Below, in pieces: positions 34,660-38,416 of a stretch of DNA of 64,000 bases; within the stretch, counting starts at the first letter, position 1, and each line of letters opens with the position of its first letter. Position numbers and translations under genes: made by a program. Source of the stretch: Micromonospora sp. NBC_01699 (GTDB lineage Bacteria > Actinomycetota > Actinomycetes > Mycobacteriales > Micromonosporaceae). Where the stretch lies: contig NZ_CP109199.1 in NCBI RefSeq assembly GCF_036250065.1, positions 7,812,083-7,876,082 of the forward strand, in the 5' to 3' direction. The notes beneath the pieces were generated by a model, which was not told where the DNA came from, made no database searches, and saw only the letters and a list, made by a program, of their open reading frames with translations.

Positions 34660-35914
34660 CTAGCGACGAGGCGGGGTGACCCGACCCTCGATCGCCGCCA
34701 GCGCGATGTCCCGTCGATAGTGCGAGTCGGCCAACCCGATCCCCTCGACCAGGGCGTACGCCGCGTCCCGCGCGACCTCCAGGTCCGGGCCGATCGCCGT
34801 ACCGCAGAGGACCCGGCCCCCGGCGGACACCAGGGCACCGTCTTCCTCGCGGCGCGCGGTGCCGGCGTGGATGATGCCCGACCGCTCGGCGCCCGTGATC
34901 ACGTCGCCGGTGCGGGCCGACTCGGGATATCCGGCCGAGGCCACCACCACCGCGACCCCGGCACCGCCGCGCCAGGTCAGCGGCGGGTGCGCGGCGAGCG
35001 TCCCGGTCGCGGCCGCGTGCAGCAGGCCGGCCAGCGGCGTCTCCAACAGCGCGAGTACGACCTGCGTCTCCGGATCCCCGAAGCGCGCGTTGAACTCGAT
35101 CACCTTGGGCCCGCTGGCGGTGATGGCCAGGCCGACGTAGAGCAGCCCGGAGAACGGGGTGCCGCGTCGGCGCATCTCCGCCAGGGTCGGCTCGACCACC
35201 CGGGCCATCACGTCCTCGACCAGGTCCGGTGCCGCCCACGGCAGTGGCGCGTACGCCCCCATGCCGCCGGTGTTCGGACCGGTGTCGCCGTCGCCGACCC
35301 GCTTGAAGTCCTGGGCCGGCAGCAGCGGCAGCGCCGCCTCCCCATCGGTCACCACGAACAGCGAGACCTCGGGTCCGGCCAGATATTCCTCGACCACCAC
35401 GCGGTTGCACTGGGCGGCGTGTTCGAGCGCGTGGGTCCGGTCCTCGGTCACCACCACGCCCTTGCCGGCGGCCAGCCCGTCGTCCTTCACCACGTACGGC
35501 GGGCCGAACTCGTCCAGCGCGCGAGCCACCTCGTCCGCATCAGTGCAGGTGTACGCGCGAGCGGTGGGCACCCCGGCAGCCGTCATGATCTCCTTGGCGA
35601 ACGCCTTGGAGCCCTCCAACTGGGCAGCCGCCCCGGACGGCCCGAAGACCGCGATCCCCTTGGCCCGAACCGCGTCGGCGACCCCGGCGACGAGTGGCGC
35701 CTCCGGCCCGATCACCACCAGGTCGGCCCCGGTCTCCACGGCCAGCCCCGCGACCGCCCCCGGATCAACCGCGTCAATCGCCCGGCATTCCGCCACAGCC
35801 GCGATCCCCGGATTCCCCGGCGCCGCAACCACCGCCTCAACCGCCGAGTCACCCGTCAACCCGAGCACGAGCGCATGCTCCCGCCCACCACCACCCACCA
35901 CAAGTACGCGCACG
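34660..35914 (-). CDS. purD: Phosphoribosylamine--glycine ligase (PurD)
   Basis: VRVLVVGGGGREHALV... ATP-grasp ...KVIEFNARFGDPETQ. GTG start at 35912-35914. The upstream part of track ORF 34660..36609 is spurious. Confidence 0.9.
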
Positions 35915-35949
35915 ACCCCAGATCCTACCCACCCACCCACCCCCCGCTC

Positions 35950-36010
35950 GTTGATCATGAAGTTAGCAACGCCTCCAGGCGCATTTTCCGTTGCCAACTT
36001 CATGATCAAC
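35950..36010. repeat. Palindromic intergenic repeat element, copy 4, between the divergent purD and AbiEi/DUF559 genes. It is flanked by a C-tract (35885-35945) and a roughly 90-bp G-tract (36011-36100).
   Basis: The termini are GTTGATCATGAAGTTAGCAACG / CGTTGCCAACTTCATGATCAAC. Confidence 0.85.
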
Positions 36011-36095
36011 GGGGCTGGGGTGGGGGTTATCCACAGGGGGGGTGGGGGTTGTGCACAGGGGGTGGTGGGAGGGGGTGGAAGGGGGGTGGGTCGGG

Positions 36096-37024
36096 GGATG
36101 GATGGGATGACGTTGGTTCGGCGGGTGGCGGCGGGGCAGGACGGGGTGGTGACTCGGGAGCAGGCGTTGGCCGCGGGGTTGACGGTGCGGGAGATCGATC
36201 GACTGTGTCGCAGCCGCGAGTGGCGGAGGCTGGCTCGGGCGGCGTACCTGGTGGATCTGACGCCGAGTCCGGTGGCGGCGCGGCGAGCCCGGATCCGGGC
36301 GGCAGTCGCCTCGTTCGGGGAGCTGGCGACGGCGGTGCTCGGGACCTCGGCCGAGTTGCACGGGTTGGCGGGACTGCGGCCGGATGCGCGGATCCACGTC
36401 TCCGTACCCGGCCCGGCCGCCCGACCGCTGCGATCGAAAGATCCGGCCGTGGTGGTGCACCAGCTCGTGATCCCGGCCGGGCAGATCGGCACGGTCGCCG
36501 GGATCCGAACCACCACCGCGACCCGTACGGCCGCCGACCTGGCACTCCGGGTGGACCGCTTCGCGGCCGTGTCGCTGCTGGACTCGGCTCTGCACCAGGG
36601 CTCGATCACCGAGCCGGACCTGCTGGTCGTACGCGCGCTGCTCGCCCGGCGCCGAGGTGCGGTGGCCGCCCGGCGTCACCTGGCCGAGGCGGACGGGCGG
36701 GCCGAGTCCCCACTGGAGACCCGGGTACGCCTGCGTTGCGTGGACGGTGGCGTACCACCGGACGCACTACAGCACCCGGTACGCGACGACGACGGCCACC
36801 TGCTGGCCGTGGGCGATCTCGCCTGGCTCCGCGAACGGATCATCGGCGAAGCCGACGGCGCGCTCGTACACGCCACCCCGGAAGCCCTCTACCGCGACCG
36901 CCGCCGCCAGAACCTGATCGCCAACGCCGGCTGGCGCGTACTCCGCTTCACCTGGGCCGACACCCTGAACCCCACCTACATCCCCACCACCATCCGCGCC
37001 GCCCAGACCCACCCGGCCCGTTGA
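36096..37024 (+). CDS. Protein with an AbiEi-type N-terminal domain and a DUF559 (Vsr-endonuclease-like) C-terminal domain
   Basis: MDGMTLVRRVAAGQDGVVTREQALAAGLTVREIDRLCRS... C-terminal ...NLIANAGWRVLRFTWADT. It lies exactly between repeat copies 4 and 5. Its TGA stop is inside copy 5. Confidence 0.65.
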
Positions 37025-37080
37025 CCATGAAGTTAGCGACGGTTCGGAGCACGTTTCCGGTCGCTAACTTCATGATCAAC
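37020..37080. repeat. Palindromic intergenic repeat element, copy 5 (GTTGACCATGAAGTTAGCGACGG...CCGGTCGCTAACTTCATGATCAAC). It is followed by three 21-bp tandem repeats GGCGGTCAGAGGAGGGRGTGG at 37087-37150.
   Basis: Direct reading. It overlaps the DUF559 gene stop codon. The downstream tandem repeats run into the purA 3' end. Confidence 0.85.
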
Positions 37081-37129
37081 GAACGAGGGCGGTCAGAGGA
37101 GGGGGTGGCGGTCAGAGGAGGGAGGGCGG

Positions 37130-38416
37130 TCAGAGGAGGGGGTGGCGGACTACGTTTTCCTCTCGGCCGGGGCCTACGCCGACCACGGAGACGCGGGTGC
37201 CGCAGAGTTCTTCGATCCGGGCTATGTAGCGGCGGGCGTTCTCCGGGAGCTCAGCCTCGGTGCGGGCCTTGGTGATGTCCTCCCACCAGCCGTCGTGCTC
37301 CTCGTAGATCGGGGTCGCGTGGTGGAAAGCGGTCTGCGTCATCGGCATGTCGCTGAACCGTTCGCCGTCGATCTCGTAGCCGACGCAGATCGGCACCTTC
37401 TCCAAGCCGGTGAGCACGTCCAGCTTGGTGACGACCAGATCCGTGATGCCGTTCAGGCGGGTCGCGTACCGGGCGACCACGGCGTCGAACCAGCCGGTCC
37501 GCCGCTCGCGGCCGGTGGTGGTGCCGTACTCGACGCCGACCTTGCGCAGGTGCATGCCGTTCTCGTCGAACAGCTCGGTCGGGAACGGACCGGAACCCAC
37601 CCGCGTGGTGTACGCCTTGGTCACCCCGATCACCTTCGTGATCGCCGTCGGCGGGATGCCCGCCCCCACGCAGGCCCCGCCCGCGGTCGGATTCGACGAG
37701 GTCACGAACGGGTACGTGCCGTGGTCCATGTCCAGCATGGTCGCCTGGGCGCCCTCCAGCAGCACCGTCTCGCCCCGGTCGAGCGCGTCCCAGAGGATCG
37801 CCCGGGTCTCCGCGATGTACGGCCGCAGCCGCTTCGCGTACTCCAGGTACTCCTCGGTCACCGCGTCGACGTCCAGCGCCTTGCGGTTGTAGACCTTGAA
37901 CAGCATCTGGTTCTTCTCGCGCAACGCGAGTTCCAGCTTCTTGCGCAGGATGCCCGGATCGAGCAGGTCCTGTAGCCGGATGCCCATCCGGGCGACCTTG
38001 TCGCCGTACGCCGGGCCGATGCCACGGCCGGTGGTGCCGATCCGGGCCGAGCCGAGGTAACGCTCGACCACCCGGTCCAGCGCCCGGTGGTGCGGCATGA
38101 TCAGGTGCGCGTCGCCGGAGATCCGCAGCCGGGAGACGTCGACGCCCCGCTCGGCCAGTCCGTCGATCTCGGCCAGCAGCACCTTCGGGTCGACCACCAC
38201 CCCGTTGCCGATCACGATCATCGCGTTCGGCGAAAGTGCGCCGGACGGCATCAGGTGCAGTGCGTACTTCTGCCCGTCCGGGGTGATCACGGTGTGTCCG
38301 GCATTATTACCACCGGAGTAACGGACGACGTAGTGGACCTGCTCGCCGAGCAGGTCGGTAACCTTGCCTTTGCCCTCGTCGCCCCACTGCGCCCCGATGA
38401 GCACGATCGCTGGCAT
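37130..38416 (-). CDS. purA: Adenylosuccinate synthetase (PurA)
   Basis: [43 protein letters not shown], the GTP-binding P-loop. 428 aa. Confidence 0.9.

Follow-up and report, generated by a model that had tools for sequence, protein, structure and literature searches.

Paired palindromes mark the boundaries of a variably oriented and variably present AbiEi-DUF559 gene at the purA-purD junction of Micromonospora

The closest described parallels to the sequences analyzed here are found among short, dispersed palindromes. The TRIT motif of Mycobacterium is represented by 147 palindromic, mostly bidirectional, sequence-conserved copies that lie in a narrow window overlapping stop codons and occur in one genus (PMC3152330). 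REP and REPIN sequences are also dispersed intergenic palindromes, most of them between gene ends (PMC2817692, PMC3337134, PMC3733652). They are 20 to 40 nt long with a GTAG or CGTC tag (PMC3733652), and tagged REPs were not reported from Actinobacteria in that study. The RAYT genes that accompany them encode Y1/HUH (IS200/IS605-type) transposases and are inherited vertically at a fixed locus between two flanking repeats, and the repeats evolve in concert within lineages (PMC2817692, PMC3337134). Here we analyze a 64,000-nt stretch of Micromonospora sp. NBC_01699 (the window; coordinates are positions within it), in which two of five copies of a palindrome bracket a gene that encodes an AbiEi-like module fused to a DUF559 nuclease domain (the AbiEi-DUF559 gene) between purD and purA. 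We conclude, with a probability of roughly 55%, that this is an old, vertically inherited, dispensable gene and that the flanking palindromes are the breakpoints of an inversion in the window's clade and of a deletion in the lineages that have empty sites. By analogy, the locus appears to work most like REP- or TRIT-type gene-end palindromes that bracket and rearrange a widespread, uncharacterized nuclease gene.

An arrangement in which purA is directly followed by purD is common in actinobacteria. The two genes are separated by a 125-bp spacer with an unrelated hairpin in Dactylosporangium and by a 56-bp spacer in Polymorphospora, and neither genus has the gene or the palindrome there; absence of the unit from the ancestral purA-purD arrangement is a supported conclusion. 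We compared eight gene-bearing loci. In all eight, the order along the gene strand is palindrome, G-rich leader with two DnaA-box-like motifs, gene, and palindrome, and the unit between the palindromes (leader plus gene) is ~1.07 kb in the window. The unit is antiparallel to purA and purD in the window, CP109078 (L081), and M. pisi (L082), and it is parallel to them in CP118615 (L083), CP114913 (L324), M. mangrovi (L001), CPCC 205558 (L003), and M. halophytica (L002). The two orientation classes have collinear flanks beyond the palindromes: the purA tail at one end of the unit and, at the other, G-rich DNA followed by GTAGGAT and the purD GTG. The stop codon of the AbiEi-DUF559 open reading frame (ORF) is within the first arm of the 3' palindrome in 6 of the 8 loci (the window, L081, L082, L083, L324, and L003), in the context CGT TGA YCA TGA, of which either the first or the second TGA is used. 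The window, L083, and L324 have in common a GACC variant of this stop-side arm. Because the GACC variant and the location of the stop codon follow the gene, the inner arm has travelled with the gene, which places the orientation switch inside the palindromes.

Other relatives have the same site without the gene. In the metagenomic contig L330, which is sister to the window clade and whose PurA and PurD are 90% identical to those of the window, purA is followed by 4 nt, a single palindrome, G-rich DNA, TAGGAT, and purD, with no gene and no boxes. Micromonospora sp. NPDC049559 (L329) has one variant palindrome and nothing else, and L328 and L004 have no palindrome at purA-purD. The purD-side copy in all relatives and the lone copy of the empty sites are orthologues of palindrome copy 4 of the window. 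The initial annotation of the window anticipated that an empty site with a single repeat copy in close relatives would indicate insertion. L330 and L329 are such sites, but deletion between the flanking copies would leave the same structure, and a single-palindrome empty site fits deletion and insertion equally. At a decayed locus, the M. halophytica pseudogene (L002, 12000 to 12360), a frameshift is accompanied by a deletion that extends from about codon 277 into the spacer of the 3' palindrome and leaves only its outer arm. A single locus is therefore seen with its unit intact, flipped, decayed, and cleanly deleted, with palindromes as the boundaries of rearrangement inside a core biosynthetic gene cluster.

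The palindromes themselves also carry signs of recombination. The 31-nt centre of the purA-side copy (spacer at 37041 to 37059) is 87% identical between the window and L081 in reverse orientation only, despite PurA sequences that are 99.5% identical. In L083, the two palindrome copies of the locus match each other at 81%, again only in reverse. Each clade has its own centre, common to its flanking and dispersed copies: the window clade has AGCGAC...GTCGCT, L083 and L324 have GTTGTCA..., and L001 and L003 have TGCGTCA...TGACGCA. Exchange between arms and between copies would yield both spacer flipping and concerted evolution, as observed.

Since the two copies repeat each other in direct as well as in inverted orientation, the palindrome pair can form the recombination boundaries of the unit. 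We infer that recombination is the mechanism and that inversion and loss, rather than repeated gain, give the direction of change. The gene would have joined the ancestral purA-purD junction long ago, at or beside the palindrome that follows purA, and would since have passed down vertically, evolving fast and being dispensable. Recombination between the palindromes, homologous or hairpin mediated, could then have produced the observed states: an exchange in the inverted sense would have turned the entire unit around in the window's clade, and one in the direct sense would have removed the unit in other lineages, with one palindrome remaining. The parallel layout is probably the older one. In it, each palindrome would simply stand after a stop codon (that of purA or of the nuclease gene), as palindromes do elsewhere in the genome. 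Copy 4 now lies between divergent genes because the unit flipped in the window's clade; after the flip, copy 5 would serve two convergent genes, and copy 4 would have been left stranded just upstream of the purD TAGGAT.

The placement of the palindromes might instead be a coincidence, with the two copies serving simply as hairpins at the 3' ends of purA and the AbiEi-DUF559 gene, and with the inversion and the deletions resulting from unrelated events. Both copies directly follow a stop codon in the parallel layout, as copies 1 to 3 of the window do, and the family resembles TRIT, which is placed at stop codons (PMC3152330). However, the inverted segment begins and ends inside the palindromes while the DNA outside them is collinear in both classes, and the empty sites keep exactly one intact palindrome and no trace of leader or boxes. 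In addition, the M. halophytica deletion terminates in a palindrome spacer, and palindrome spacers flip between near-identical relatives. Coincidence is thus a very improbable explanation.

The window has 10 matches to the arm motif CATGAAGTTRGC (at most 1 mismatch), which form five plus/minus pairs, compared with a shuffle mean of 0.07; 0 of 100 shuffles reach 10. Every copy folds as a 21- to 25-bp hairpin of -37 to -44 kcal/mol (z = -6 to -11 versus shuffles). The RNA fold of copy 4 is -37 kcal/mol (z = -6.75), and that of copy 5 is -37.5 kcal/mol on the plus strand and -44.3 kcal/mol on the minus strand. All five copies of the window are intergenic, and in this lineage, copies lie 0 to 18 nt from stop codons. 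The initial annotation had treated the repeats as markers of a cassette, which they are not specifically, since copies 1 to 3 are solitary, each 7 to 18 nt beyond a stop codon. Each copy is preceded (5') by a C-rich tract and followed (3') by a G-rich tract, so that the symmetry reaches well past the 61-nt core, and the palindrome ends, CGTTGATC or CGTCGATC, are paired rather than forming an unpaired tag. We aligned 20 copies, taken from the window and from seven relatives; the arms are almost invariant over their outer 14 nt and variable over the inner 7 to 8 bp. Pairing is retained in 92% of cells of the 22-pair stem, and compensatory two-sided changes occur in 11 pairs; none of 500 shuffles and none of the slid controls approaches these values. 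Judged by this covariation, the hairpin is under constraint, and we take the family to be, presumably, a gene-end RNA or DNA hairpin.

The dispersed copies are stably placed. The palindrome after htpG (copy 1) is orthologously placed in M. pisi (L325) and in Micromonospora sp. NPDC049523 (L326), and the position of the palindrome by the thiolase gene (copy 2) is kept in L326. Because orthologous positions are kept in related species, we conclude that the dispersed palindromes are old, positionally stable, and not recently mobile. No target-site duplications were seen at the palindrome copies, and we rejected identity as miniature inverted-repeat transposable elements on the basis of these conserved positions and the lack of target-site duplications. 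Copies 1, 4, and 5 adjoin purB, purD, and purA, respectively; a role as operators of a purine regulon was rejected, since copies 2 and 3 adjoin unrelated genes.

Compared with TRIT, the Micromonospora palindromes are likewise a genus-restricted hairpin with conserved sequence and structure, scattered copies located at or over stop codons, and no canonical U-tract (PMC3152330). The likeness is one of description: the sequence is different, the genera belong to different actinobacterial families, and the Micromonospora palindromes have C-rich 5' and G-rich 3' flanks that extend their symmetry. Unlike anything described for TRIT, a pair of them brackets a gene at inversion and deletion boundaries. 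The likeness to REP and REPIN sequences lies in the dispersed intergenic placement and, as with RAYT genes, in a vertically inherited nuclease-type gene at a fixed locus with two flanking repeats and in concerted evolution of the repeats within lineages. In contrast to REPs, the palindromes here are 61 nt long, with a stem of 21 to 22 bp and a spacer of 17 to 19 nt, and in contrast to RAYT genes, the flanked gene encodes an AbiEi winged helix-turn-helix (wHTH) joined to a Vsr-like PD-(D/E)xK domain. At gathering thresholds, Rfam gave no match to the palindromes, and the only matches at E < 1 were chance matches to plant microRNAs. A search of metagenome and viral contigs with the exact 14-mer TTGATCATGAAGTT gave single one-strand chance matches and no palindromic pairs, and is uninformative. 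Literature searches on the repeat sequence and on Micromonospora palindromes found nothing relevant. This gene-end palindrome family therefore appears to be undescribed (no Rfam match and no mention in the searchable literature), and its closest parallel, the TRIT motif, is itself unexplained.

The AbiEi-DUF559 gene diverges along with its hosts. Within the window clade, the proteins are 88% and 79% identical where PurA plus PurD are 96% and 93% identical. Identity is 75% for the M. mangrovi/M. halophytica pair, 53 to 65% between orientation classes, and 50 to 62% among distant members of the parallel class. The protein diverges ~3 times faster than PurA plus PurD, and extrapolation of this rate roughly gives the observed between-class values. 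A protein tree of 40 homologues places the window clade outside the crown, as one of several deeply branching groups, and among 715 homologues found by homologue search, none outside the clade is more than 66% identical. Based on divergence that tracks the host, the extrapolated rate, and the deep, non-nested branch, we favor one old acquisition followed by vertical descent, one inversion, and losses. The ratio of nonsynonymous to synonymous substitution rates (dN/dS) is 0.22 against the closest relative and 0.23 to 0.34 at greater distances, compared with 0.105 for purD and 0.013 for purA. Because dN/dS is 0.22 to 0.34, this is a real gene under relaxed purifying selection. It is also dispensable, since it has decayed in M. 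halophytica and in M. pisi, whose copy has a 37-nt insertion in the wHTH-coding region (L082, ~3860 to 4000).

A second possibility is that the gene plus one palindrome is a mobile cassette that integrated repeatedly, in either orientation, into a resident palindrome downstream of purA by palindrome-palindrome recombination. Such integration, although doubtful, would account for the two orientations and for the single-copy empty sites without inversion or loss, and the one-palindrome empty sites do occur in lineages that branch between the orientation classes, for which two gains are more parsimonious. The window protein is 65% identical to that of L083, which is above the 60% identity of the L003 protein to that of L083, and a 65%-identity homologue is annotated in another genus, Phytohabitans (P0057). 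The unit also resembles an integron cassette: its ORF ends in, and enters, an imperfect 3' palindrome, as integron cassettes enter attC, with conserved outer ends and a centre that varies with pairing kept, and it is present or absent at a site that retains one palindrome. In contrast to an integron, there is no integrase, attI, or array, but a single unit with its own leader, found in both orientations, and the palindrome termini GTTGATC...GATCAAC reverse the order of the RYYYAAC...GTTRRRY core sites of attC. No integrase, transposase, other recombinase, or AbiEii toxin gene is annotated within 4 to 10 kb of any of four loci. A plasmid search found no homologue, there is no near-identical donor among the 715 homologues, and gene divergence scales with host divergence. 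All copies that were looked up sit at purA-purD and none elsewhere. We therefore regard the mobile cassette as unlikely. Recent horizontal transfer or a plasmid origin was rejected because there are no plasmid homologues and no homologues above 66% identity outside the clade. The initial annotation had pictured a small cassette delivered or delimited by the repeats, in a mobile or defense context. A delimited unit is what we find, but recent delivery is contradicted by the same site in 8 of 8 carriers, host-tracking divergence, and purifying selection, and the annotated surroundings and the plasmid search give no sign of a mobile or defense context.

Several observations weigh against inheritance of an old gene with inversion and loss. 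In a parsimony count on a neighbor-joining tree of PurA plus PurD, a tree that is made from two proteins and has no support values, one gain entails three losses and one inversion, whereas two gains in opposite orientations are two events. No inversion or excision intermediate was observed, and orientation was sampled in only 8 genomes. The covariation of the stem could come from arm-to-arm DNA gene conversion instead of selection for a hairpin. Finally, a role of the palindromes as terminators is doubtful because U-tracts are absent after the hairpins, where a G-rich tract follows on both strands, and intrinsic termination by mycobacterial RNA polymerase in vitro depends on a U-tract (PMC3993855); a GC-rich hairpin is what they share with the canonical intrinsic terminator. 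Protection of mRNA 3' ends, or a site for a stem-binding factor, are alternatives to termination.

The assignment of the gene product to AbiEi and DUF559 in the initial annotation is borne out by several lines of evidence. Weak, concordant Pfam matches to AbiEi_4, AbiEi_1, and DUF559/MTES_1575 were found; those to AbiEi_4 (24.8 bits; cut-off, 25) and AbiEi_1 (21.8 bits; cut-off, 22.2) are slightly below threshold, and that to DUF559 (21.4 bits) is above the 20.6 cut-off. The PADLOC AbiEi model covers residues 4 to 190 (E = 7e-21). An AlphaFold model made from 40 homologues has a predicted local distance difference test score (pLDDT) of 89. When this model was used in Foldseek, the N-terminal two-thirds matched the AbiEi antitoxin 6y8q (E = 7e-5) and Rv2827c (1zel), and the nuclease domain matched the homing endonuclease I-Bth0305I (3r3p) with a target-normalised template modelling score (TM-score) of 0.67 to 0.72 over 96 to 97 columns. 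We thus assign an AbiEi-like module to residues ~1 to 200 and a Vsr/DUF559 (EDxHD-type) PD-(D/E)xK nuclease domain to residues ~200 to 300. Searches of NCBIfam and of PDB sequences with the protein found nothing. Across 40 homologues, no variation is seen at E204, D237, E248, D250, or D264, and conservation of H255 is at least 90%; the order of these residues appears to be that of the EDxHD motif (PMC3239194). From its sequence, the domain looks catalytically intact and is predicted to be of the Vsr type. DUF559, Vsr, and 3r3p form a single PD-(D/E)xK clade (PMC3424549), and as modelled, the C-terminal ~100 residues have the fold of Vsr/DUF559/EDxHD nucleases, with the candidate E...D...H...D residues conserved (PMC3239194, PMC3424549). 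Like I-Bth0305I, the protein has a DNA-binding module fused N-terminally to the nuclease; unlike in I-Bth0305I, that module is AbiEi-like and not NUMOD, and the gene is outside any intron or intein.

The N-terminal two-thirds has the fold and sequence signature of AbiEi, the antitoxin of AbiE type IV toxin-antitoxin systems, and by analogy with AbiEi, the direct repeats in the gene's own leader could be an autoregulatory operator. In contrast to AbiE, there is a C-terminal nuclease domain in place of an AbiEii nucleotidyltransferase partner, which was not found; the neighbors are purD and purA, a conserved housekeeping setting. A complete AbiE defense system was ruled out by the absence of an AbiEii gene. 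The combination of AbiEi and DUF559 is very common, with 14,157 cluster representatives (50% identity, E ≤ 1e-3) that are mostly full length and ~300 residues long, and literature searches on DUF559 combined with AbiEi found nothing relevant. These proteins are without known function, and the locus offers candidate DNA partners for them, namely the palindrome arms or the DnaA-box-like repeats. A distant homologue (31% identity) is located ~1 kb upstream of purA in the metagenome-assembled genome of an uncultured actinomycete (L057, 8154 to 8978); flanking palindromes were not found at that locus, where purA and purD abut.

This setting raises the possibility that the AbiEi-wHTH/Vsr-like enzyme binds or nicks the palindrome hairpin or cruciform and so drives the spread of the family, its homogenisation, the flipping of spacers, and the rearrangement of the unit. 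The anatomy is RAYT-like, with a vertically inherited gene at a fixed locus (purA-purD only, where looked up) between two copies of a dispersed palindrome, and flanking and dispersed copies vary together, clade by clade, in their central sequences. The match of the nuclease domain is to the catalytic part of a genuine homing endonuclease, little or no variation is seen at the putative EDxHD-type residues, and the palindromes keep their outer 14-nt arms throughout the genus but vary in their inner stems. The link between protein and palindrome comes from setting and build, not from biochemistry, and much of the distribution speaks against it. The dispersed copies are at conserved orthologous positions and show no sign of having moved recently; the palindrome after htpG is perfect in M. 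pisi, although the gene is disrupted there; a lone palindrome persists in lineages that lack the gene; and the distant homologue near purA in another actinobacterium is without flanking palindromes. It is very unlikely that the enzyme drives all of these processes, and quite unlikely that it is the dedicated enzyme of the palindromes, as a PD-(D/E)xK counterpart of RAYT or a free-standing homing-type nuclease that reads the 14-nt outer arms. An old, vertically inherited gene rearranged at its flanking palindromes is the explanation that we prefer.

The leader of the AbiEi-DUF559 gene is G rich in both orientation classes and inverts with the unit. Its DnaA-box-like repeats, GGTT[A/G/T]TCCACAGG (GGTTNTCCACAGG), form a pair at 21- to 23-bp spacing in 8 of 8 gene-bearing Micromonospora loci, and such pairs are absent elsewhere in the 8 loci and at the empty sites, apart from one near purS. 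This second, abutting pair is ~100 nt upstream of the purS-purQ-purL operon (window 8595 to 8620, minus strand) and is kept in two relatives (L325, 15260 to 15283, and L326, 15285 to 15308). Candidates for the factor that binds the boxes are DnaA and the AbiEi wHTH itself. For DnaA boxes in connection with actinobacterial purine genes, literature searches gave nothing relevant.

The features of the window are collected in Table 1. Read directly from the coordinates, copies 4 and 5 bracket the gene between purD and purA as initially described, and the G-rich tract of about 90 bp and the end of the gene were also correctly placed. The TGA at 37022 to 37024 is bases 3 to 5 of the copy 5 terminus GTTGACC, as had been proposed. 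The start that was given (36096) is 2 nt off: the ATG at 36098 is in frame with the stop codon, and this is the sole long, homologue-consistent ORF that ends at 37024. The NCBI annotation of the same genome starts the protein at the ATG at 36107, which gives 305 residues (P0001). ORFs on both strands inside the unit matched no Pfam family, and promoter and terminator scans for canonical sites in the region gave no match.

Table 1. Positions of the palindromes, genes, and repeats discussed in the text (window coordinates)
Feature	Position	Strand	Description
Palindrome copy 1	11866..11926		7 nt past htpG stop, upstream of purB
Palindrome copy 2	16371..16431		Between convergent aldo-keto reductase and thiolase genes
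Palindrome copy 3	25866..25925		14 nt past stop of 1693-aa gene; adjoins gene for DUF3686 AAA protein
purD, phosphoribosylamine-glycine ligase	34660..35913	-	Fixed flank of unit; GTG start
TAGGAT, -10-like hexamer	35922-35927	-	8 nt upstream of purD GTG
Palindrome copy 4	35950..36010		61 nt; GTTGATCATGAAGTTAGCAACG...CGTTGCCAACTTCATGATCAAC; arms 21-22 bp, spacer 17-19 nt; between divergent starts of purD and AbiEi-DUF559 gene
G-rich leader of AbiEi-DUF559 gene	36011..36097	+	87 nt, GC skew +0.79
22-bp tandem repeat, 2.4 copies	36017..36069	+	Holds two DnaA-box-like motifs: GGTTATCCACAGG (36026-36037), GGTTGTGCACAGG (36048-36059)
AbiEi-DUF559 gene	36098..37024	+	308 aa; AbiEi-like wHTH and AbiEi C-domain fused to Vsr/DUF559 nuclease domain
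Palindrome copy 5	37020..37080		61 nt; GTTGACCATGAAGTTAGCGAC...GTCGCTAACTTCATGATCAAC; between convergent 3' ends of AbiEi-DUF559 gene and purA
19-bp tandem repeat, 3.3 copies	37085..37148		Last purA codons and stop, triplicated; abuts palindrome copy 5
purA, adenylosuccinate synthetase	37130..38416	-	PF00709; fixed flank of unit

Three smaller observations concern the edges of the palindromes and their possible kin. The 19-bp repeat of the purA tail next to copy 5 is present as one copy in the close relative L081, compared with 3.3 copies in the window, and in M. pisi (L082), the purA-side flank has instead 3 to 4 tandem copies of CTCCTCGTCGAT that touch the outer end of the palindrome. At the start of purD, GTAGGAT-N7-9-GTGCG is kept at all occupied and empty sites (the window and seven other loci), a sequence pattern consistent with a promoter of a leaderless purD transcript that would start just past the palindrome. 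The window also has a different palindrome of the same build, CGTCGATCTAGGGCAAAT...ATTTGCCCTAGATCGACG (23286 to 23369), with a left-hand C-tract, a CGTCGATC terminus, and a right-hand G-tract, which suggests a wider superfamily of such elements.

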